DNA of 64,000 bases from an uncultured Peptococcaceae bacterium (GCA_964637365.1 CAZWWH010000001.1:132269-196268), one strand, 5' to 3'; shown: positions 6,340 to 29,272, counted from the first letter of the stretch. Numbers and translations: made by a program. Notes: a model not told the origin generated them from the sequence alone.

Positions 6340-6355
6340 TGCAAGGAGCGTGCCA
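6340..6355 (-). promoter_or_regulatory. sigma-54 (-24/-12) promoter driving the mttB-paralog/BCCT/hydantoinase operon
   Basis: minus strand reads TGGCAC-GCTCC-TTGCA, an exact match to TGGCAC-N5-TTGCW, about 80 nt upstream of the start at 6261; divergent from the sigma-54 activator gene. Confidence 0.8.
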
Positions 6356-9676: not shown

Positions 9677-9692
9677 CGCAAAACCCGTGCCA
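9677..9692 (-). promoter_or_regulatory. sigma-54 (-24/-12) promoter of the second mttB paralog
   Basis: minus strand TGGCAC-GGGTT-TTGCG, about 65 nt upstream of the start at 9612. Confidence 0.75.
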
Positions 9693-9759: not shown

Positions 9760-9910
9760 ATTCTATAGGCGTCATGTAAATATTTATTGCCGCAATAAAT
9801 ATTTCATCTATAAAAAATCGCAATAAAAATTGCTACTTCGGCACAAACTATTTTTGACAATTTTCATTGCCTATTCAGGAAAAACGACATTTTTATTGCG
9901 CAATATTTCT
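9760..9910. promoter_or_regulatory. candidate activator-binding palindromes
   Basis: TTTATTGCcGCAATAAA (perfect 8+8 palindrome), AATCGCAATAAAAATTGCTA and ATTGCGCAAT; same TTGC-N-GCAA theme as at 6480-6550. Confidence 0.45.
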
Positions 9911-9987
9911 TGCGGTATGCTTTTTGCATATATCATATTAACAAAGAGGCACAAAGCATAAACCAAACCGAGAAAGGAGGAAACTCA

Positions 9988-11466
9988 TTGAGAAAAGTAA
10001 TGAATGAATCGCTGCTGCTGGATATCATTGAGCATTTTCATGCCGCAGTCTACATTGTGGATAAAGACGGAAATATGGAATACCTAAACAGTGCAGCCAA
10101 ACGCATGGACCGCCTTACCGATAATGTCATTGGCAAAAACTTATCGGAAATTTATTACAATACAGTTTTCCAGGAAGGCATGAACTCCCCCTGCTTAGAC
10201 ACCCTCAAAACAGGAAATGCCCACATTTACGAAAATTTAGAGTGGTATCTCAAAGACGGTACTACGGTCAACGCCATTACCAGCACTTATCCCATTATCA
10301 AGGAGGGAGAAATCCAGGGTGTATTTGCCCTGTCCGAAGATGTCAATCAATTAAAAAAGTTCCTGATAAAAAATGGTGCTTTCAAACAGAAATTGTCCTA
10401 CCGTTTCCGCAATAAGACCATGAAAAACGGTACTCAATATGTGTTCAACGATATCATTGGGGAAAGCGAATTGATGAAAAATACCATTATGATGGCTCGG
10501 CGGTTTGCCGCCAAAAAGCTGCCGGTAATGATATACGGCGAAACCGGTACCGGTAAAGAAATGTTCGCACAGAGCATCCATAATGCCAGCCCCTATGTGG
10601 CCGGGCCTTTTATTCCCATCAACTGCGCGGCCATTCCCGAAAACCTGCTGGAAAGTATGCTTTTCGGCACTGTCAAAGGAGCCTTTACCGGCGCCCTGGA
10701 CCATGCTGGACTTTTTGAAAAGGCCGAGGGCGGTTCCGTGTTTCTCGACGAAATCAACTCCATGCCCATGTTGCTCCAAGCAAAGATCCTCAGGGTTCTC
10801 CAAGAAAAGGAAGTGCAGCGCATTGGCGATAGTAAAACACGAAAAATCAACTGCCGCATCATTAGCGCTACCAATCAATTACCCACTGAAGCCATCCGCT
10901 CTAACAGCCTGCGTGAGGATTTATTTTACCGTTTATCCACCGGCATGGTCTGGATTCCTTCCTTGAAAGAACGCAGCGAAGATATCTCCCTTTTGGTAGA
11001 TTATTTTATGGAAAAGGCCAATGCGGAATTGGATACCACCATCCTCTCCATTTCACCAGAGCTGGACCATTTGTTCCATGCCTATGACTGGCCGGGTAAT
11101 ATCAGGGAACTGTCCAATGCCATAGAAAGCGCCATGAACATGACGCTGGATGGGGAAACCGTACTGGACCTGCGACATCTACCCACTTACTTAAAGCGGC
11201 ACTTTAGCACGGAATTGATGGGAATGCCCAATGCAGAGGAGGTCTTCTCCGTACGAAACGAGTCCATGGACAACCCTGCGCCCATGCTCCACCTTCATGG
11301 CAATATCAATGAAATGGTAGACGCTTACGAAAAAGAGCTGATTCAATTCGCTTTACGCGCTACTAGGGGCAACCTTTCCAAGGCTGGGGAAAAACTGGGA
11401 ATCTCTCGCCAAAGCCTTTCTGTAAAACTGAAAAAGCATTGCATTGATGCAAAAACTTTTAAATAA
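9988..11466 (+). CDS. sigma-54-dependent transcriptional activator (PAS - AAA+ - HTH), paralog of 6595-8082
   Basis: the same motif set (GETGTGKEMFAQSIHNAS, GAFTGA) and about 65% identity to the first activator; likely TTG start at 9988 (GGAGG 7 nt upstream) or ATG at 10000. Confidence 0.85.
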   Translation: MRKVMNESLLLDIIEHFHAAVYIVDKDGNMEYLNSAAKRMDRLTDNVIGKNLSEIYYNTVFQEGMNSPCLDTLKTGNAHIYENLEWYLKDGTTVNAITSTYPIIKEGEIQGVFALSEDVNQLKKFLIKNGAFKQKLSYRFRNKTMKNGTQYVFNDIIGESELMKNTIMMARRFAAKKLPVMIYGETGTGKEMFAQSIHNASPYVAGPFIPINCAAIPENLLESMLFGTVKGAFTGALDHAGLFEKAEGGSVFLDEINSMPMLLQAKILRVLQEKEVQRIGDSKTRKINCRIISATNQLPTEAIRSNSLREDLFYRLSTGMVWIPSLKERSEDISLLVDYFMEKANAELDTTILSISPELDHLFHAYDWPGNIRELSNAIESAMNMTLDGETVLDLRHLPTYLKRHFSTELMGMPNAEEVFSVRNESMDNPAPMLHLHGNINEMVDAYEKELIQFALRATRGNLSKAGEKLGISRQSLSVKLKKHCIDAKTFK

Positions 11467-11545: not shown

Positions 11546-11561
11546 TGGCATAAAATTTGCA
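11546..11561 (+). promoter_or_regulatory. sigma-54 (-24/-12) promoter upstream of the MFS transporter gene
   Basis: TGGCAT-AAAAT-TTGCA (GG-N10-GC spacing preserved) about 190 nt upstream of the ATG at 11754. Confidence 0.6.
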
Positions 11562-19395: not shown

Positions 19396-21374
19396 TCACC
19401 GAAGCTGATATTTTTTTATCTTTTTATATAATGTAGATTTTCCCATATTCAGCATTTTCGCCGCCTGGGCCACGTCATGATCCGTAGCCGTCAGGGCTTT
19501 TTGAATGGTTTCTATTTCCGCATCCCGGATTGGGTCTGGGGAAATTAGAGATTTAGACGGCGCGATTGACGTAGAGAATACGTCATCGGGAAAATTTCCG
19601 GGAACGATCCATTCGCCATTACCGGTAGTTACCGCATAGACAACGGCCTTTTGCAGTTGGCGCACATTACCGGGCCAATCACCATGAAGCAAAATGCTTT
19701 TCGCCTCAGAACTCAGTCGGGGTACCTGCCACTGCATTTTGCCGCAGTACTCCTGAATAAAGTGCTCTGCCAATAAAACGACGTCGTCATCGCGTTCCTT
19801 CAATGGTGGAATGACAATTTTCAATGCAGAAAGACGGTAATATAAATCTTCACGGAACAGGCGTTTCCGCACAAGCTCTTGTAAATCCTGATTGGTGGCG
19901 GCGACGAGACGGAATTCCACGTCAATGTACTTATCGCCGCCAATTCGCATCACCTGATGATTTTCTAAAACCCGTAGCAGCACCGCCTGCACCTCATAAG
20001 GCATGTCCCCAATTTCATCTAAAAACAAGGTGCCCCCTGGGCCAGCTCAATTTTTCCGGGGCGGCCCTTCCGCTCGGCACCGGTAAAGCTGCCGCCCTCA
20101 TATCCCAACAGCTCACTTTCCACCAAATTTCGAGGCATGGAGGCGCAGTTTAACGCGATAAAAGGGCCGTGGGGCCGTGAGGCGTTGTGGATCGCCTGGG
20201 CAAAAATTTCTTTGCCAGTACCGCTTTCCCCTAAAATCAATACATTTTCAAAGGAGGAGGCAAAGCGCATAGAGATATCCTTAGCTTTCACAATGGAGGA
20301 ACTTTCTCCGAGAATATCCTGGAACGTCAGAGTCGCAGTATTATGATTTCTTTGGGCAATGTAGCTGTCAATTTGTTTCGGGTCACTGATACGGATTACC
20401 ATACTGTCGGAAACATCGGCCTGCTCCCCCATAATGGGTCTTAGGCTGAACAGGTAGTTTTTATCTCCCTCCGGCAGAAGCAGTGTATCCTCTAAATTAT
20501 TAACGTTGGCTTGAAGCGACAGCATATGCTTTAACGGCGAATTCTCTCGAAGAAATTCACAAAGGTTGTACTGACGTTCCGAATCCTCCTTGATGCCAAG
20601 GATATTAATGCTTTTTCGATTAGCTTTCAAAATTTTCCCGTGATTCTCCGCCAAAACAATACCTTCATCCATAAAAGTAAGGGTGGCCTCCAGCATTTGA
20701 TTGGTCTTGCGGAGCTCCTCGTTCCGCTTTTTGATTTCCATTTGCTGACCTATGGACAAGGCCATGGAGGACGTCCAGCAAAGAGCATTGATTTGATCCC
20801 GATGATATTCCGTGGTCCAGTATTCCTCCGGCATTAATCGGGCCAAGGCAATGATCCCGACACTCTGCCCCTTTCCATCGAGAATCGGCGCTGCCGACAT
20901 TGTGGTCGGCTGCATGGTATCGTGAAAATTCTCCGGGCCGTTGGTTTGCACGGGACAGCCGTAGCGGAGAGCCAGCATGGTTGCGGTAGTTCCCAGATAC
21001 TCATCTTTCGAGGAAGATGCGATATACTCCGCACCGGAGTCCGTCACAGGGAATCCCTTATTGGCAATGATAGTGAAGTAGGATTTATCCTCCGGGCTGT
21101 TAAAGAAGCAAAGCAAATTCAAATCCCGATCAAATAAAATCACAATAAGGTGGGAAATGGCAAAAAGCTCCATAATTTCATCGGTAATCATTGCCTTTGT
21201 AGTCTCTATCAGCAATTTATTTTTTTGAAAAAGATAATTATTCTGTTCCACACTGGGATCTGGCGGAAAAAGATCCTGATATGGGTGGATGCCATAGGTA
21301 AAGGAGCGCTCCCATGACAGGGCTATTTCCTCCCGAATCAGGGGATTCCCCGAGGGACGAATTCCTTTTTCCAC
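19396..21374 (-). pseudogene. sigma-54-dependent activator (GAF-PAS-AAA+-HTH, AcoR-like) disrupted by a -1 frameshift
   Basis: ORFs 20019-21374 and 19396-20028 are the N- and C-halves of one activator; the break is at a C5/G5 homopolymer (20033-20037). Restoring one G gives …GKIELAQGGTLFLDEIGDMP…, the canonical activator sequence. Confidence 0.75.
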
Positions 21375-22139
21375 ATAATCCCTTTTCGCCCGTTCCAGTA
21401 TTGTACCGGATATGCGCCGTTCAAGGTAAAAGGCAAAGCCATCACTTGCCGAAAATATGCCGCAAGGATCAACCGCAAAGAATATGCCAATGCCAACCCC
21501 ATTATTCGCCTTTACAAAAACCGTTGCTCGGCACTACGTATGGAACGCAAACGTGGTAAGCACGACGATGTACTAATAAATGCCGCCCTTGCCGTTGCCA
21601 AAGAGCGTATGCAACGGGCAAAGAACGATCCCGATTATGCCAACGGACAGTATGAAGCAGATATACTTCGTGAAGAACTCTACGCCGAAGCGGACAGACG
21701 ATTAAACGGCAAATAACACAGATTGGAGGTGAGTGCCGTGAAAGAAAAGTATATTGACGAAAAGGAACTGAATATGTACCGCATCCAGCTGGCACCGCCG
21801 AAGTGGGATTTACAGGAATATATTGTGACCTATCTGAAAGAGCAAGATGACCGAACGAATGATGCTCGCCCAGCGGCTTGGTTTCTGTTTTGATTGCCAC
21901 AGCATATTTTATATGGATTATGACGATTTGGATGAATACGGTGATCCGAAAAAGAAACCAATCAAGCCAATGATGTATACCGATATTGCCACCGACCACG
22001 AATACAGCTCCGCCAATACCGCACACAAAAATGTGAAAAGGCACTTGCTAAACTAAAAGAAACCATAAAAGACTTGATATAACGAAAAAAGCCCCGTTAG
22101 AAATGCAGAATTTACTGCGCTCCCAACAGGGCAATTTAT

Positions 22140-24314
22140 TTATTTCCGCCTTTTGAAAACAAATGCAAAAACAAGCCCTAATGCAAGAAACAATACGCTT
22201 ACAATCATTACGATCCAATCGGTTGCAGGTACAGTATTCTGACCTTGCGATTGGGTTTGACCGTTACTGTTTGGTTGCGCATTGCCGTCAGGTCGTTGCA
22301 TCTGACCGCCGAAATCCCCATTTTCACCGTCAGGCAGTTCAGGCGGTGCGCCACCTTGCATTTGTTCGCCTCCGAAGCCGCCTTGGTTTCCGTTCGGCAT
22401 TTGACCATCAGGCATCTGAGAAATTGAACTATCTTCTGAGCTGCCATTTTCTGTAGCATCCGATTCTCCCGAAGGTGTTTTGTCGGTTGATTCTGTGGTT
22501 TCATTATCCTCAGCATCAGTCTGCGGTTTTTGAGTATTACCATCAAACTTATCTTTGCCGCCGCCCATAGTATTGCCCATAGAACCCATATCATTGATTT
22601 GAATATCACCGGCATCTATAAGGGTATCACTCTTTTGGGTATCAGAGGTAGAGCCAATTGTTCCGTCAAGTTGAGCACTCACGCTTTCTGCACGAAGCAA
22701 ACAGAACTCTTTAAGAGTCGTAATGCCTTTTTCAAATTCTTCATAAGTGCAGAACTTTGTAGGATCCTTTTCAACATATGGAGAAATCATTGCATTGACG
22801 TTATCTATCATCTCTGAGAAATAACCGCTATCGAAATAGGTCACAATAAATTCCGAGAAATACTTATGGTACAGTTCGGTATATTCTTCATTCTCGAAGA
22901 TCCAAGCAATCATCGGTCTATCTTCGGTGTTGCCGCCGGATACAGGAGAGTCAACCGGATAGTTGACAAGGTTGGTAGCACCGCCCGCAGACTCGAATCC
23001 GCCGAAAGCAAGGTTATAGTCCCACGGAACCATTTGCATCTGACCGTCTTTTTCGTAGAGATAATAGTTATGGATCATCGATCCGGTATAGCTGTCAAAA
23101 TTCAAAACAAAGTTATGCACCACGAAATAACGGATTACTTTTTCGATATCAACAGTATCTTCAAGCTCTTCGCCGTTACTCAGTTTTTTGAGAGCTGCGA
23201 TCAAACGTGCTTTATCGCTGTCGGAAACATCAGTTTTCGCATTGTCAAAGATGTTGGCATAGCTTTCGATCTCATCGTCAATGTATTTGAGCAATACATC
23301 GTCGCTGCCATTGGTCATACCGCCTTTATCTCCGCCTTGCATATCTCCACCGGGTATCTGTCCGCCCATTTCGGGAACGGTACCGCCTTGTTGCATCTGT
23401 CCGTTTGTATCTGATGTCGAACCGTCTGTAGTTGTTTCGTTATTAGGAGGTGTCATTCCGCCTTGTGCGTTACCTGCATTGGGCTCTACCGCTGTTTCTC
23501 CGCTCGGTAACTCAGGAGGTGTTGTGCCGCCCTGTGACTGACCACCTTGCATATTTTCGCCTGGCATCTGCGGAGTGGTTTGATCGGTATTACTGCTTGT
23601 TGTATCTTGCGTGGTAGTCGAGGTGTCGGCATCCTCGGTGTTGCCGAGGAAGTCATCCATATCGAACTTCTCGCCGTTGCCTCGTCCACCTCCCATACTT
23701 TGACTGTCGGGCTTATAGAGTTCACCATAATTGTTTCCGTAATTACGTTGCAGGAAAGATTTTTCTACACCTTCTACCGCAATGTAAAGCCCCCAATCTT
23801 CACCGTTTACCGTAATATAAACATAACTGCAAAGCGGTGAAGAAACGCCCATTTCAGCCATCATCTGATAGGCCAGATAATCCTTCATATAGGTGTTGTC
23901 CTGAATGATATTGTTTAGGCACAGCTTATCCAGACCGTAGTAGGTGTTGGTACTGTCGTAATGGTCAAACTCGATTTTGAAGCTGTAACGGTCGTTTCCG
24001 TAGGATGCCACCTGTGTCAGCGAAGTGTTGCCTTTTCCACGAATCGCCACATTTTTATACGCTTCATTATCAATGACAACAGAACAGGCATAGTATTCTT
24101 CGCTTTTGCAGTTTGCCGTAAATTCTTCCCAATCCTCCATAATAATATCAATGGTGTGGACAGCAGAGGTATCAAACAGCTTATTTTCATAGCCCATTAC
24201 GGTAGAAGCCTTTTGAACACCGAAACTTTCGGCATTCATAAACAATACGGTAAGAAGCAACGTAACAGCAAGAACAACACAGCAAATTTTATCAAAATGC
24301 TTATGTGTTGACAT
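22140..24314 (-). CDS. CotH kinase-family protein, membrane-anchored at both ends, with a long Gly/Gln/Met/Pro-rich low-complexity segment
   Basis: 724 aa; CotH-like core (…YGELYKPD…, …YYLYEKDGQMQMVPWDYNLAFGGF…); N-terminal signal anchor and C-terminal TM (WIVMIVSVLFLALGLVFAFVFKRRK). Confidence 0.65.
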   Translation of the reverse strand: MSTHKHFDKICCVVLAVTLLLTVLFMNAESFGVQKASTVMGYENKLFDTSAVHTIDIIMEDWEEFTANCKSEEYYACSVVIDNEAYKNVAIRGKGNTSLTQVASYGNDRYSFKIEFDHYDSTNTYYGLDKLCLNNIIQDNTYMKDYLAYQMMAEMGVSSPLCSYVYITVNGEDWGLYIAVEGVEKSFLQRNYGNNYGELYKPDSQSMGGGRGNGEKFDMDDFLGNTEDADTSTTTQDTTSSNTDQTTPQMPGENMQGGQSQGGTTPPELPSGETAVEPNAGNAQGGMTPPNNETTTDGSTSDTNGQMQQGGTVPEMGGQIPGGDMQGGDKGGMTNGSDDVLLKYIDDEIESYANIFDNAKTDVSDSDKARLIAALKKLSNGEELEDTVDIEKVIRYFVVHNFVLNFDSYTGSMIHNYYLYEKDGQMQMVPWDYNLAFGGFESAGGATNLVNYPVDSPVSGGNTEDRPMIAWIFENEEYTELYHKYFSEFIVTYFDSGYFSEMIDNVNAMISPYVEKDPTKFCTYEEFEKGITTLKEFCLLRAESVSAQLDGTIGSTSDTQKSDTLIDAGDIQINDMGSMGNTMGGGKDKFDGNTQKPQTDAEDNETTESTDKTPSGESDATENGSSEDSSISQMPDGQMPNGNQGGFGGEQMQGGAPPELPDGENGDFGGQMQRPDGNAQPNSNGQTQSQGQNTVPATDWIVMIVSVLFLALGLVFAFVFKRRK

Positions 24315-24325
24315 AGTGTACCTCC

Positions 24326-24997
24326 TTAACCCATATACTCGCCGTTATAGCTCACAAGAACTGCACTGTTTACGCCGGGCATAGTGCTCAGAGCATTGAT
24401 AAAATCGGTATTATCGTTTACCATACGAATTTCGAGATTCAGTTCAATCAATCCTTTGGTTGCCGTCTTGCTCTTAACAACGCATTTTTGAACATTACCT
24501 TTGAGAAAATCCACCGCTTTGTTTTCGGCCATAGAATCAGCGCAGGAAAGAACAACGATATAAGGATTGTAATAAGATTTCTTGTTTACGAACACAAGAA
24601 GGATTGCGCCGATGATAACGCTGCCGATTACTGCAAGAGGAATAAAACCGGCTGCAAGCACAATGCCGACTGCGATTGCCCAGAAAAGAAACGCAATATC
24701 GAGGGGTTCTTTAATAGCGGTACGGAATCGAACAATAGAAAGTGCACCAACCATACCAAGCGAAAGAACCACGTTAGAAGTTACCGCTAAAATAACAACG
24801 GTGGTGATCATCGTGAGGGCAACGAGCGTTGTTCCAAAGCTGGAGGAATACATAACGCCCTGATAGGTCTTTTTATATACGAGGAAAATAAACATACCGA
24901 TGCCGAAGGCAAGAGCCAAGGCAATCGCCATATCGAGAATACCCACGCTTGCGATATTCTCCAAAAAACTTGATTTGAAAATGTCATTGAAAGTCAT
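24326..24997 (-). CDS. DUF4956-domain membrane protein
   Basis: 223 aa, 4-5 TM helices plus a C-terminal soluble domain; fits the DUF4956 family that co-occurs with VTC-domain and CotH proteins. Confidence 0.55.
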   Translation of the reverse strand: MTFNDIFKSSFLENIASVGILDMAIALALAFGIGMFIFLVYKKTYQGVMYSSSFGTTLVALTMITTVVILAVTSNVVLSLGMVGALSIVRFRTAIKEPLDIAFLFWAIAVGIVLAAGFIPLAVIGSVIIGAILLVFVNKKSYYNPYIVVLSCADSMAENKAVDFLKGNVQKCVVKSKTATKGLIELNLEIRMVNDNTDFINALSTMPGVNSAVLVSYNGEYMG

Positions 24998-25026
24998 AAT
25001 ACTTACTCCTTATAATTTTTATTATT

Positions 25027-25698
25027 TTAGCCGTAGATTCTGCAAACGGCGTATTTGGAAAAAGCGCCAACACGGCGGTTATTAAGTTGGACAGCATCCC
25101 GAATAATGTCCGGCAAATACTCGTCCCATTTTACTTCAAGAATGATCGGTGTCTCGCCTGCAGGAACCGTAACACAGTTTGGATTCAGAAAGTCCGTACA
25201 GTTCATTCCTGTGCGGATGTTATAGTCAAGGGTTACTCGAACATTACCGGGTGCAAAAACAAAGGGTTCTCTTAGATAATCCACGATAGTTTTTGGGCGC
25301 AATCCCTGACCTTTCATCTTACTGTATAATTCCTGAATCAAAGGAACACCGCTATCCATCATCCAATTATAATCACCGTTTGCAATCGCCTGCGCTTGTT
25401 CTTTGGACAGTGTTGCATTGTCTTTCAAACACAAACCATTGACTTTGCTTTTCTTCTCTAAATGAATCAAGGATGTGTCGTTGTTATAATATCGAATGCG
25501 GAACTTTTCACGGACATTCACACTGTCAACCTTTTCTCTTAGTGCCTTATCGGATGCGTTATCAAAATATAAACTGCGGATCAGATACTTGCCGTCAATA
25601 GCGTGGGCATCTCGTTTCATAACGGCAGACAAACGCTGACGGAGAACAAGCATATCACCGTAGCTGATTTCGTGCTTCCATTCGTGTCGGTATTTCAT
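25027..25698 (-). CDS. VTC-domain (polyphosphate-polymerase/triphosphate-tunnel-like) protein
   Basis: 223 aa; N-terminus MKYRHEWKHEISYGD…RQRL…IRSLYFDN… and conserved Lys/Arg/Glu pattern of bacterial VTC (CYTH-like) domains. Confidence 0.6.
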   Translation of the reverse strand: MKYRHEWKHEISYGDMLVLRQRLSAVMKRDAHAIDGKYLIRSLYFDNASDKALREKVDSVNVREKFRIRYYNNDTSLIHLEKKSKVNGLCLKDNATLSKEQAQAIANGDYNWMMDSGVPLIQELYSKMKGQGLRPKTIVDYLREPFVFAPGNVRVTLDYNIRTGMNCTDFLNPNCVTVPAGETPIILEVKWDEYLPDIIRDAVQLNNRRVGAFSKYAVCRIYG

Positions 25699-25798
25699 CT
25701 TTTCACTCCTTTCTCATTTAGCTTCATAAAAAAGCCTCCTGTACTTGATAGCATCATTGTACAGGAGGAAGATTGAAGTTTGATTGAAGATTATTAAA

Positions 25799-27058
25799 TT
25801 ATTTTCCTAATGGAATATGCACAGTAAATTCAACCTTACCGTCATAACACAATACATCAATTTTACCACTATGTGTGGAAACGATTGCTTTCGCTATTGC
25901 AAGTCCGAGTCCATAGTGCTTGTCCTCACTATTACGGGCGGTATTCACTCGATAGAAGCGTTCAAATATCTGTTCACGCTGTTCTGCAGGGATTTCATTA
26001 CCTTTGTTTATAACGGAAAGCTTGGCGAGAGCGTGTTCCTTTGTCAAAGACAAATAGACTTCGCCTTGTTCTTTGCTATGACGAATAGCGTTATCAAGCA
26101 GTATTGAAACGATTTGTTTAAGCTGTGTGCTGTTACCTTCGATACTAATACCGTTTGCTATATTGCTGTTCAGCACGAGTCCTTTTTCAAAGGCAACACT
26201 TTCAAATGGGAGGGCTTCACCGGCAACCAAACGGCTGAAATCAATGTGTTCCATCTGCGGTGTTACGGTCTCGGTTCGAGCAAGGTCAAGAAGCTGACCG
26301 ACCAACATTCCCATACGCTCATTTTCATATTGTATATTTTGGAGCCATTGGTTATCGCCGATCTCACGGGACAAGAGTTCTGCATTTGCACTTACCACCG
26401 ATACCGGTGTTTTCAGTTCGTGACCTGCATCGGATATAAACTGCTTCTGTTTTTGATAGCTTTCTTCAAGGGGATTCACAATTTTTCTTGCAAGAAATAC
26501 CGACAGGAAAAAGAACAAAACCAAAGCCACACCGCCAAAAACCAGCGTATAACGGAATAAGGTCAAGGCGTTTTCGTTTACAACAGTATTATCCATAAAG
26601 GTAACAAGGTTGTAGCCACCTTTATCCGCTTTGTAAAAAGCAAGATTATTTTTAGTTCCGGTAGTTTCATTGCTCTTTATAATATCTTTTGCCAACACTT
26701 CCAAATCATCATTGGTATGCACTGTTGGCGGTTCATTCTTTACTTCAATAATATCACCGTCATAGGATACCGCAACGGTATAGAAAGTGGACAACTGAAA
26801 CAACGGTGATTGCGGATCAAAGCCGAGATTGAAACCTTGATTGCCATTAGTTTTTGGTCTGTTTGGCGGAATCATATCTTCAAAGGATTGCGGGAGCACA
26901 TACATTTCAGCGTGTGCCTGAAGCATCTGTTCATTTTGTTTTGCCATTTCAAAATAACTGGATGCATAAATAACACCAAGCGTTCCTACCCATAAAAGCA
27001 CAAGGATGGACATAATGGCTGCAACGATTTTTCTTTTTGATTTTTTAAACATCGTCAC
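25799..27058 (-). CDS. sensor histidine kinase (two TM, HAMP, HisKA, HATPase)
   Basis: H-box ISDAGHELKTPVSV, N/G boxes (IRHS…, GLGLAIAKAIV); overlaps the response-regulator gene by 14 nt. Confidence 0.85.
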   Translation of the reverse strand: MTMFKKSKRKIVAAIMSILVLLWVGTLGVIYASSYFEMAKQNEQMLQAHAEMYVLPQSFEDMIPPNRPKTNGNQGFNLGFDPQSPLFQLSTFYTVAVSYDGDIIEVKNEPPTVHTNDDLEVLAKDIIKSNETTGTKNNLAFYKADKGGYNLVTFMDNTVVNENALTLFRYTLVFGGVALVLFFFLSVFLARKIVNPLEESYQKQKQFISDAGHELKTPVSVVSANAELLSREIGDNQWLQNIQYENERMGMLVGQLLDLARTETVTPQMEHIDFSRLVAGEALPFESVAFEKGLVLNSNIANGISIEGNSTQLKQIVSILLDNAIRHSKEQGEVYLSLTKEHALAKLSVINKGNEIPAEQREQIFERFYRVNTARNSEDKHYGLGLAIAKAIVSTHSGKIDVLCYDGKVEFTVHIPLGK

Positions 27059-27728
27059 ACCTCAATTCATATCCAACACCACGGACTGCCTTAATTTCGG
27101 TTTTAGCTTCGATAAAACTGAGTTTTTTACGGGTAAAAGACATATATACTTCTACATTGTTATACTCGGCTTCACTCTCAAAACCCCAAATTTTTACCGC
27201 AAGTTGTTTACGGGTGAGTATCTGACCGCTATTTGCAATTAAGTATTCAAGGATTCTATATTCCTTTTCACTAAGTCTTACGCTCTGTCCGTTGGTAGTG
27301 CAAGATAATGTAAGGGTGCTTGTATCAAGGGTAATGTCCCCAAATGAAAGAATACCATCTGTTGTTCCAAGTGTTCGTCTACCGAGTGCACGGAGACGGG
27401 CAAGCAGTTCCTTTGTCATAAAGGGTTTTGTTAGATAATCGTCGGCACCGCTATCAAGACCTGTAACCTTGTCGTCAAGCTCTGCCTTTGCCGTGAGCAT
27501 CAATATCGGTGTTGCAACACCTTTGTTGCGAGCCCGTTTTACAATTTCGTATCCGTTCATTCCGGGGAGCATAACATCAAGAATTACAATATCGTAAATG
27601 TTACTCTCGATTGCGGCTAATCCATCAAGACCGTTTGCAAAATGATCTACTTCATATTTTTCAAGACGCAGGATTTCGCAAAGCGCCTGCGCCATTCTTT
27701 TTTCATCTTCGACGAGTAAAATCCTCAT
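27045..27728 (-). CDS. OmpR-family response regulator
   Basis: MRILLVEDE…D(53)VMLPGMNG receiver domain plus a winged-helix trans_reg_C (…VRGVGY); GGAGGT RBS before MRIL. Confidence 0.85.
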   Translation of the reverse strand: MRILLVEDEKRMAQALCEILRLEKYEVDHFANGLDGLAAIESNIYDIVILDVMLPGMNGYEIVKRARNKGVATPILMLTAKAELDDKVTGLDSGADDYLTKPFMTKELLARLRALGRRTLGTTDGILSFGDITLDTSTLTLSCTTNGQSVRLSEKEYRILEYLIANSGQILTRKQLAVKIWGFESEAEYNNVEVYMSFTRKKLSFIEAKTEIKAVRGVGYELRCDDV

Positions 27729-27805
27729 AGCGATACCTCCGCTTATTATCATTATACCATAAAAGATTGAAAAATGATTGAAGTATTTGAAAAACGGCGG
27801 CTCGG

Positions 27806-28189
27806 TTAGTTGTAAATTATATCGTAATTTACGATTTCTGTGGCTCTGCTGCGGATGTTATTCATCCGAGAAACCCATTCCATTTGACTGTCAGCTTTGA
27901 GTTGTTCGGTCACGCCCTCACGCTCTGCCATCTGTTCTACGAGCCGAAAAAACATATCCTCAGTCTGCTTGTTTACATCGGCAAGGTGCCTGTTCAGTTC
28001 ACATTGTGTGAGTAAGGTTGTATAAAACCCTTTGCGGTGCACCTTGATATACTGCAAGTGCCGCTGTCCCCAAATACCGATAGGCTGTTTTTCTTCATTG
28101 GGGAGTGCAAGGTCGGGCAAGTAGTAATCTCCGTGCAGAGTGTAGCTAATGCTCGTCTGTTCGTTATAAATGTGCTTCTCCATCATCAC
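27806..28189 (-). CDS. TnpV-like small protein (transposon-associated, Tn4451-family accessory protein)
   Basis: 127 aa; the …ISYTLHGDYYLPDL…PIGIWGQRHL…QMEWV… pattern resembles, from memory, TnpV proteins carried on Firmicute conjugative/mobilisable elements; not verified by search. Confidence 0.45.
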   Translation of the reverse strand: MMMEKHIYNEQTSISYTLHGDYYLPDLALPNEEKQPIGIWGQRHLQYIKVHRKGFYTTLLTQCELNRHLADVNKQTEDMFFRLVEQMAEREGVTEQLKADSQMEWVSRMNNIRSRATEIVNYDIIYN

Positions 28190-28371
28190 GCCTCCTTGTA
28201 GATCACTTTGAATTTCTTTTGCTTTCTATCAATGATTTTCAGTAAAACCTCATCCACCGCATCGGTGTACTTGCCGTTGGCAATAAGCTTATTCCGCATT
28301 TCATTCAGGCATTTTATAACTACCCGCCGTTCAAAATCATCAAGTGCTATGTAATATTTCTTATCCCGCAT
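28186..28371 (-). CDS. hypothetical 61-aa basic protein
   Basis: AAGGAG RBS 9 nt before its ATG; translationally coupled (ATGA overlap) to the TnpV-like gene. Confidence 0.45.
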   Translation of the reverse strand: MRDKKYYIALDDFERRVVIKCLNEMRNKLIANGKYTDAVDEVLLKIIDRKQKKFKVIYKEA

Positions 28372-28376
28372 ATCAT

Positions 28377-28676
28377 TTACTCCTTTAACAAATCTTGAAA
28401 CGGTGTGTCGGTGACTACGAAGGTATCGTATGTGAAGTTGGCTCCCAAGCGAAACCACATCATATAACTGTCAAGATTGGATTCGCCGTTTACCACGCTC
28501 CACGCATTAACGAAATCGAGAAACTTTTTCTTATTTTCAACCGATAGCCGTTCTGTTAGGAAATCTTCATTGAGCATCAAGACCTTCATTTGCTTTTGCA
28601 CCGCTTTGTTCTGCTTTGTGCTTCGTTCCTGTGGATCAATGTTGCCGTAATAAAATTCTTCTATAAATTTACCCAT
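28377..28676 (-). CDS. hypothetical 99-aa protein (first gene of the same-strand array)
   Basis: ORF with Firmicute codon usage; no recognisable motif. Confidence 0.45.
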   Translation of the reverse strand: MGKFIEEFYYGNIDPQERSTKQNKAVQKQMKVLMLNEDFLTERLSVENKKKFLDFVNAWSVVNGESNLDSYMMWFRLGANFTYDTFVVTDTPFQDLLKE

Positions 28677-28757
28677 ATTGTTACCTCCTTTGATTTTCTA
28701 TCATCATTTTACTCAAAGGCAGTTTGATAGTCGAATGTATGGATATAAAAGCATAAA

Positions 28758-28798
28758 AAGACAGAGAGAAAGGCGATTAAGCCTTTCTCTCTGTCTTT
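28758..28798 (-). terminator. strong hairpin/terminator separating spoIIID from the downstream array
   Basis: 18-bp near-perfect stem AAAGACAGAGAGAAAGGC/GCCTTTCTCTCTGTCTTT, U-run on the minus strand. Confidence 0.6.
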
Positions 28799-28954
28799 CC
28801 CTTTTGCAACGCCCATAAGTTAGTGTTTTGAAATTACTGCCTTATGTGGCGTGTGCAAATGTGCTTTCTCTTTTTTGTTTATCCACGTCACACGACATAA
28901 AACAATCCCATAGGGGCAATTCTTGCACCGTCGATTCATTGGGACACAAAGAGA

Positions 28955-28982
28955 GCCACCACATTTCAAAATGTGGCGGCTT
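28955..28982 (-). terminator. hairpin immediately after the spoIIID stop
   Basis: GCCACCACAT-ttcaaa-ATGTGGCGGC (one mismatch). Confidence 0.45.
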
Positions 28983-28990
28983 CATTGAAA

Positions 28991-29272
28991 CTATGGCTTT
29001 CGTTGAATCTTTACCTTGGCCTGATGCTCTGCAGCATATTTTTTTCGCGTGGCTTCGCCGCCTCGAAGGTGACGTTCGGCCTTGTTGATTTCTAATATCT
29101 GGCGCACTTTTTGTGCCGTTGCTTCATTAATCATCGGCAATCGCTCCGTCATATCCTTATGTACCGTTGACTTACTCACACCAAAAATGGCAGCGGTCTG
29201 ACGTACTGTGGCCGAGGATTCCATGATATAGCTGCTGATCTCCAGGACCCGTTTTTCAATATAATCCTGCAT
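28991..29272 (-). CDS. spoIIID: stage III sporulation transcriptional regulator SpoIIID
   Basis: 93 aa; …FGVSKSTVHKDMTERLP…RHLRGGEAT… is near-identical in the HTH core to Bacillus SpoIIID. Confidence 0.9.
   Translation of the reverse strand: MQDYIEKRVLEISSYIMESSATVRQTAAIFGVSKSTVHKDMTERLPMINEATAQKVRQILEINKAERHLRGGEATRKKYAAEHQAKVKIQRKP

Follow-up and report, generated by a model that had tools for sequence, protein, structure and literature searches.

A probable decayed end of a TnpV-bearing integrative element, with its cargo intact, next to spoIIID in an uncultured Peptococcaceae bacterium

How did a two-component system and a set of VTC, DUF4956 and CotH genes come to lie between a broken sigma-54 activator gene and spoIIID in an uncultured Peptococcaceae bacterium? 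The locus is part of a 64,000-nucleotide stretch of DNA (GCA_964637365.1 CAZWWH010000001.1:132269-196268), which was analysed at its full length and is called the window here; the block in question consists of gene debris, the five-gene cargo cassette and a small operon that ends in a gene for TnpV. Our analysis strongly favours a reading in which this block is the decayed terminal segment of a TnpV-bearing integrative mobilizable (or conjugative) element of a kind common in gut Clostridia. With its recombinase and transfer genes lost and its cargo intact, the block is an ordinary fossil of horizontal gene transfer. A first-pass annotation had proposed a horizontally acquired block that is now the remnant of an integrative element, and this proposal is supported by composition, by the protein families that mark element ends, by the variable cargo of related elements, by the truncation of one side and by the lack of a recombinase in the window. 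The block is real, and the limits first given to it (21375-28800) have moved: foreign DNA runs from 21397 to approximately 28845-28861, about 7.5 kb between the sigma-54 activator and spoIIID. Open reading frames (ORFs) were taken in six frames, gene identity comes from Pfam scans, and the related loci and same-species contigs that were compared carry L-numbers.

The two borders of the block

Towards spoIIID, the following features are arranged from the inside outwards:

28706-28734, minus strand: TCGACT-17-TAAAAT, promoter-like, ahead of the DUF6809-orf61-TnpV operon and within sequence that is conserved from element to element
28755-28800, minus strand: entry terminator belonging to the element, directed inward, with 20 stem pairs and then a T-run (terminator scan)
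28845-28861, no strand assigned: approximate element terminus (comparison with the ends of relatives)
28981-28954, minus strand: second terminator, 12 pairs (terminator scan)

Two strong hairpins had been noted here from the outset (28758-28798 and 28955-28982), and both score as minus-strand terminators (28800-28755 and 28981-28954). The outer one we read as the terminator of spoIIID. The inner one has homologues in the same place in L048, L191, L197-L202 and L204-L207, which occupy unrelated insertion sites. Genomic contexts were looked up for three homologues of DUF6809 and one of orf61. In these contexts, a nearly identical element lies in six different chromosomal neighbourhoods (L197-L202), L204 and L206 provide two more, and L191 is a further case; in every such insertion DUF6809 is the first gene of the element, and what the sites have in common starts about 150 bp ahead of that gene, with the hairpin and the promoter-like region included. 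The shared sequence of these relatives starts about 20 nucleotides outside a conserved TAAGG (window 28840-28844), and the flanks diverge from there. The spoIIID-side border looks like a genuine native element end. On the host side of L197-L202, L204 and L206 an A-run lies about 10 nucleotides from the junction, often as AAAAATCCC...CG, and the window has an A-run too, which hints at a loose target preference of the recombinase. A tRNA gene as target was considered and set aside, as only one of seven related insertions adjoins a tRNA and the window has none.

The operon that follows inward from this end consists of three genes, listed here with the deletion site that comes after them:

28377-28676, minus strand: DUF6809 protein, 99 amino acids, first gene of the end operon (Pfam DUF6809, E 1e-18)
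28186-28371, minus strand: orf61, a conserved 61-residue protein encoded always directly upstream of TnpV
27806-28183, minus strand: TnpV, 125 amino acids from the ATG at 28183, last gene of the end operon (PF14198, E 1e-46)
27801-27802, minus strand: point at which 30 bp that another strain has are deleted (comparison with L001 10876-10905)

The first-pass annotation had recognized three small co-directional genes (28676-27806) with a TnpV-like last member, and the PF14198 match bears this out at 157.7 bits against a cut-off of 27 over profile positions 2-111 of 111; TnpV also matches PHROG 24764. Translational coupling, which had likewise been suggested, fits the spacing, with the DUF6809 stop 5 nucleotides ahead of the orf61 ATG and the orf61 TGA overlapping a TnpV ATG. 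Both partners of TnpV had been called uncharacterised; the 61-residue protein has no family in Pfam, NCBIfam or PHROGs, and the 99-residue protein matches DUF6809 (PF20648) over profile positions 1-84 of 85 with 68.2 bits, the cut-off being 27. Both are common: orf61 has 1718 clusters (90% identity) at E<=1e-3, many of them 84-92% identical, and DUF6809 has 1398 clusters (90% identity) and 585 representatives at 50% identity. Neither DUF6809 nor orf61 is known from the published Tn4451 gene set. orf61 occurs together with TnpV in L048, L186-L202 and L204-L207, and TnpV lies directly upstream of the cargo, here the response-regulator gene, as it does in L100, L186-L202, L204 and tet(O) elements.

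The family libraries assign no function to DUF6809, orf61 or TnpV, and none of the three has relatives among PDB sequences. The predicted structure of orf61 is a two-helix hairpin with a disordered N-terminus (predicted local distance difference test score, pLDDT, 73), and a fold search with this model gave no match below E = 2; the idea of a ribbon-helix-helix protein is unsupported, the model having no significant fold match. The DUF6809 model is unreliable (pLDDT 57). It is tempting, though we hold the idea to be rather doubtful, to speculate that DUF6809, orf61 and TnpV form a functional module placed just inside one attachment (att) site in a widespread family of serine-recombinase elements of gut Clostridia, which sets the direction of recombination (excision versus integration) or the expression of the cargo. 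If so, orf61 would be a new small protein family of more than 1,700 clusters with no Pfam, NCBIfam or PHROG match. That the end module is intact while other backbone has decayed might reflect a role in cargo expression. Through the 30-bp deletion at 27801/27802 the terminator after TnpV has lost its 5' arm and loop, whereas L001 keeps the segment that completes it as a strong hairpin; with this terminator incomplete, transcripts of the TnpV operon may read into the two-component genes in the strain of the window.

The border towards the activator is of a different kind:

21397-21716, plus strand: 3' fragment of a DUF6076 gene, about 105 codons, pseudogene (Pfam DUF6076, E 6e-25)
21738-22056, plus strand: remnant of a sigma-factor-like backbone gene for a protein of about 300 amino acids (blastn and protein alignment)
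22085-22144, no strand assigned: conserved hairpin region that bounds the cargo bay on its far side (82-87% identity to L181 and L191-L196)

The DUF6076 fragment has no start codon and an incomplete domain, covering positions 70-167 of 168 of the PF19553 profile; roughly the last third of the gene is kept, full-length genes in related loci encoding 301-397 amino acids. Its homologue P0002 (92% identical, 165 amino acids) extends further upstream, and in an alignment to four relatives the nucleotide homology of DUF6076 sets in abruptly at 21397. The junction between chromosome and element is therefore placed at 21396/21397, 22 bp away from the activator GTG (21374), and those 22 bp are unrelated to the element. 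Next to the fragment, the ORFs at 21738-21893 and 21847-22056 align to residues 1 to about 40 and about 230-297 (about 66 codons), respectively, of a protein of about 300 amino acids that is encoded directly after DUF6076 in L180, L187 and L198. An internal deletion of about 0.56 kb at about 21850 has removed residues ~41-229 and left the two halves out of frame, and blastn alignments of the remnant to L180 and L187 are split at 21850-21853. Thus the three short plus-strand ORFs in alternating frames that had been seen at 21375-22139 are present, as the remains of two genes and not of one longer gene, and the GGAGGTG ribosome-binding site ascribed to the ORF at 21738-21893 belongs, together with the GTG at 21738, to the native start of the ~300-residue gene. 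We call this protein sigma-like only tentatively because its intact homologues match Sigma70_r2 (E 5e-5 to 8e-3) and a PHROGs family of phage sigma factors only weakly, below threshold. The counterparts of 22085-22144 in L181 and L191-L196 adjoin other cargo, and the region, judged by its sequence, is probably a bidirectional terminator for CotH and the sigma-like gene; the terminator scan did not flag it.

The activator-side border is a deletion scar. The earlier description of the block as bounded by gene debris and strong terminators can be refined: the debris on this side is two pseudogenes, and the spoIIID side appears to be a native element end. A comparable wreck exists elsewhere: positions 1-3000 of L181, from a different genome, hold a decayed remnant with a TnpV variant, an N-terminal fragment of a serine recombinase, an internally deleted DUF6076 gene and, from the sigma-like gene, the C-terminal piece that the window also has, homology to the window resuming at 21850.

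Composition, missing backbone and the parent family

The comparison of composition between block and flanks that the first-pass annotation had proposed was run, and the block differs. Its strand-symmetric tetranucleotide distance is 0.265, against 0.127 +/- 0.014 (maximum 0.167) for 84 control windows of equal length, so that it lies beyond all of them, and the excess remains without CotH. The guanine and cytosine (GC) content is 42.5% in the block and 45.6% outside; at third codon positions it is 0.35-0.45 in the five cargo genes, 0.49 +/- 0.06 outside and 0.56 in TnpV.

Intact elements of the Tn4451/Tn6104 type have two defined ends that join in a circular intermediate, with a 2-bp crossover. 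Only one end of the block looks native (~28845-28861), the other border breaking inside DUF6076, and the genes that would move an element are missing. When the ORFs of nine related loci, recombinases included, were used as tblastn queries, no recombinase or other backbone remnant was found elsewhere in the window, in keeping with the earlier statement that no integrase is seen there. Pfam scans of the block genes show no recombinase either, and neither they nor tblastn found a relaxase in the block or the window; L180 and L204 have one.

What the intact parent may have looked like can be read from the relatives. L187 and L197-L202 share the gene order of the window, namely a first gene, orf61, TnpV, cargo, a convergent gene for a protein of about 300 amino acids, and DUF6076. 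The first gene is that for DUF6809, except that L187 has one for 113 amino acids; L191 starts alike, and DUF6076 is not in its recovered stretch. The cargo varies: Kdp, Trk and CorA genes in L186-L190, ICMT, DUF5685 and DUF92 in L191-L196, genes for DUF6591, Band_7 and DZR together with a 281-residue tyrosine recombinase in L197-L202, and a leucine-rich repeat (LRR) protein in L204. Beyond DUF6076, L180, L191 and L204 have genes for Cys_rich_VLP, a ParM-like ALP_N protein, a NikA-like protein and a relaxase; in L180 the relaxase, NikA-like, ALP_N and Cys_rich_VLP genes lie beside DUF6076. L187 encodes a large serine recombinase of 546 amino acids, and at the end of L204 a NikA-like gene, a relaxase fragment and a fragment of DUF4368, a C-terminal domain of large serine recombinases, adjoin a chromosomal gene. 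The relatives point to a mobilizable parent element with a large serine recombinase and a relaxase.

The 281-residue tyrosine recombinase is XerC/D-like and lies beside the sigma-like gene in the cargo bay of L191-L202 (for example L198 16727-17572). It is present in two element subtypes with different cargo and might have a role in cargo exchange. A phage origin was considered and rejected, as a full DUF6076 protein finds nothing among viral contigs and PHROGs place TnpV in an unnamed family only. A DNA search of a plasmid collection gave one 58-bp match, and the only match to DUF6809 in that collection was an isolated gene in apparently chromosomal sequence.

Competing accounts and a proposed history

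Several points weigh against this reading. The pooled codon-usage distance is borderline, at 0.076 against a null maximum of 0.075, with one spurious antisense ORF in the pool, and the reference for host composition was only the other 56 kb of the window, that is, the window minus the block. In all metagenome contigs of the same species the block occupies an identical position. An empty site was not found: exact-protein look-ups with DUF6809, SpoIIID and PadR returned the same species only, with the block present. The nearest other genome in a species-representative collection, Candidatus Cryptoclostridium obscurum (81% amino acid identity on the neighbouring oxidoreductase), is not syntenic here, its DNA differing after DUF1667, and more distant relatives are rearranged. 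The last ~16 nucleotides at the presumed terminus cannot be aligned to relatives, which leaves the exact base uncertain. Finally, no single relative matches all three parts of the block: the nearest for the debris is L181 (87-89%), for the cargo L100 (82-83%) and for the end operon L191 (80%). Because no empty site was found, the acquisition was not itself seen and is read from composition and comparative anatomy. The same-species contigs are 99.7-100% identical to the window; three long ones cover each flank, several short ones cross the spoIIID junction, and the junction between spoIIID and the element was seen in at least six samples.

The different closest relatives of the three parts and the unalignable ~16 nucleotides on the spoIIID side would also suit an improbable alternative, in which recombination brought in a fragment of an element from another genome (after transformation or conjugative entry, for instance) and no whole element ever integrated. 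The lack of direct repeats would suit it too: repeats at 21.4 and 28.8 kb, which the first-pass annotation had proposed to look for, were not found at the block borders in a repeat search. Their absence is also expected if one end has been deleted. Mosaicism, moreover, is normal for such elements, and the spoIIID-side border lies within about 20 nucleotides of where related elements end in at least eight independent insertions. A random piece would not be expected to end there and to keep the complete entry terminator, promoter and operon, as this block does.

A second possibility is that the block is still mobilizable in cis and can be excised in trans by the recombinase of a related element. 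Its end operon is intact, as is the terminus, which looks native, and streptococcal remnants are known that have att sites but no integrase and relaxase genes (PMC9815147). Here, however, the element breaks off inside a gene on the other side, where neither a terminal sequence nor a repeat matches, every sample of the species has the block in the same position, and no recombinase was found in the window; we regard this possibility as very unlikely. Least probable of all is that the region is ancestral core DNA whose likeness to mobile elements is incidental, as its fixation in every sampled strain and its intact cargo ORFs could suggest, for its composition is atypical, its backbone genes are truncated, the same families mark element ends in unrelated genomes and the nearest relative of the cassette has a different context.

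In our preferred model of a decayed element end, a member of this family would have integrated immediately past the terminator of spoIIID. A deletion, probably later, would then have taken everything from inside DUF6076 through the far end of the element, and the same deletion very likely extended into the chromosome, as far as 22 bp before the activator start codon. The activator promoter was probably lost with it because foreign DNA now begins 22 bp from that codon. A second deletion would have gutted the sigma-like gene. With no recombinase, no relaxase and only one end, the block would be immobile on its own. The remnant would still express its cargo, whose OmpR-type system probably binds boxes before its own operon and before the VTC-DUF4956-CotH operon.

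Cargo, neighbouring genes and related systems

The cargo genes and their candidate control sites are as follows:

27763-27783, minus strand: second direct-repeat box, CTTCAATCATTTTTCAATCTT, just upstream of a TATAAT before the response-regulator gene
27045-27728, minus strand: OmpR-family response regulator, 227 amino acids from the ATG at 27728 (Pfam Response_reg, Trans_reg_C)
25799-27058, minus strand: histidine kinase (Pfam HisKA, HATPase_c)
25769-25789, minus strand: CTTCAATCAAACTTCAATCTT, a direct-repeat box ahead of the VTC operon, with a hairpin and T-run after it
25027-25698, minus strand: VTC-domain protein, polyphosphate-polymerase-like (Pfam VTC, E 3e-37)
24326-24997, minus strand: DUF4956 membrane protein (Pfam DUF4956, E 8e-10)
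22140-24314, minus strand: CotH-family protein, 724 amino acids, last cargo gene (Pfam CotH, E 2e-65)

All five proteins of the CotH/VTC/two-component cassette, as the first-pass annotation had named it, score above Pfam thresholds, and the CotH, VTC and DUF4956 genes are contiguous. Metagenome gene calls also give the response regulator 227 amino acids. The CotH protein has hydrophobic segments at both ends and a low-complexity middle; small indels in this middle distinguish it from the form of 733 amino acids in other strains (L014 3788-5989). The closest cassette found, in L100, has the order TnpV-response regulator-histidine kinase-VTC-DUF4956-CotH and is 82-83% identical in nucleotides from inside TnpV to just past CotH. 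Its context differs, with a 5'-truncated TnpV gene, an XRE-type gene upstream and unrelated DNA downstream, and other relatives have the five-gene or a three-gene cassette without TnpV. Intact and conserved from strain to strain, the cargo genes probably remain in use.

A scan of the whole window found the box pattern CTTCAATCA-N3-TTCAATCTT only at 25769-25789 and 27763-27783, a count that is no independent test, the pattern having been built from these two copies. The two CTTCAATC repeat boxes are candidate binding sites of the response regulator, which would then control both operons. At the VTC-side box, the hairpin with its T-run overlaps a possible -10 element.

The block is flanked by two genes:

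19396-20028 and 20019-21374, minus strand: sigma-54 activator, split by a frameshift
28991-29272, minus strand: spoIIID

The frameshift in the activator is common to all strains, and two strains (L014 and L015) lack one further base pair at window position 20174. This suggests that the pseudogene is still decaying, and it fits the loss of the promoter. In several distant Firmicutes (L028, L050, L059, L073, L075, L087 and L091) a DAO-oxidoreductase-DUF1667 operon has a sigma-54 activator gene directly after it; the window has spoIIID and the foreign block in between. A sigma-54 promoter before the DAO operon, which would link that operon to the broken activator, was looked for and not found. 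Good matches to the sigma-54 -24/-12 consensus at 6340-6355 (minus strand), 9677-9692 (minus strand) and 11546-11561 (plus strand) flank a second, intact sigma-54 activator gene (9910-11466) and the genes next to it, for an MTTB-family protein and a major facilitator superfamily (MFS) transporter, the total in the window being no more than expected by chance.

How does the block compare with known elements? In Tn4451 and Tn6104, a TnpX-like large serine recombinase, TnpV, a Mob relaxase and accessory genes are found together (PMC3158075), and work cited there as reference 17 indicates that TnpX alone is enough for transposition of Tn4451. Similarly to Tn4451, Tn4453 and Tn6104, the block has TnpV directly upstream of accessory genes. 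The large serine recombinase, NikA-like gene and relaxase of its relatives are a further likeness to Tn4451 and Tn6104, and Tn6104 also has a two-component system and sigma-factor-like genes as accessory or regulatory content (PMC3158075). However, the window lacks a recombinase, a relaxase and a second end, the TnpV operon of this family lies at the extreme end of the element and not after tnpX, and the cargo is different. The gene lists for Tn4451 and Tn6104 in the portion of PMC3158075 consulted do not include DUF6809 and orf61. The earlier label of a Tn4451-type element is therefore apt as to kind and not as to gene order. In tet(O)/tet(40) elements of Enterococcus, Campylobacter, Monoglobus and others, a TnpV (WP_001129922, 50% identical) is likewise encoded directly ahead of the cargo. 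Sigma-70-family genes come after the cargo, but in the same direction as TnpV instead of convergent with it; these elements also differ in carrying antibiotic resistance, and the annotated plasmid-record stretches shown have no DUF6809 or DUF6076 annotated.

Genes for CotH, a polyphosphate polymerase (VTC) and DUF4956 are described as an accessory set that adjoins the pel loci of Gram-positive bacteria (Whitfield et al. 2020, PMC7112168). The same three-gene combination is present in the block, but it is not beside a pel locus, DUF4832 was not seen, and the set is preceded by its own two-component system and sits in the cargo bay of a mobile element. Finally, cis-mobilizable elements (CIMEs), which are decayed elements within streptococcal integrative and conjugative elements, resemble the block in that cargo and a TnpV gene are kept after loss of the integrase and relaxase genes (PMC9815147), with the difference that CIMEs have both att sites and the block has at most one end.

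The recurring layout of this family, with a terminator, DUF6809-orf61-TnpV, a cargo bay, and a convergent sigma-like gene and DUF6076, could aid the annotation of such elements in gut Clostridia, and it draws attention to orf61, which is common and yet absent from the family libraries. The decay of such an element offers a concrete explanation for the dead sigma-54 activator next to it. Our reading of the block shows a route by which a two-component-controlled VTC/DUF4956/CotH cassette reached this spore-former and became fixed there: it came as cargo, and the mobilizable element that carried it then lost its mobility genes by deletion.

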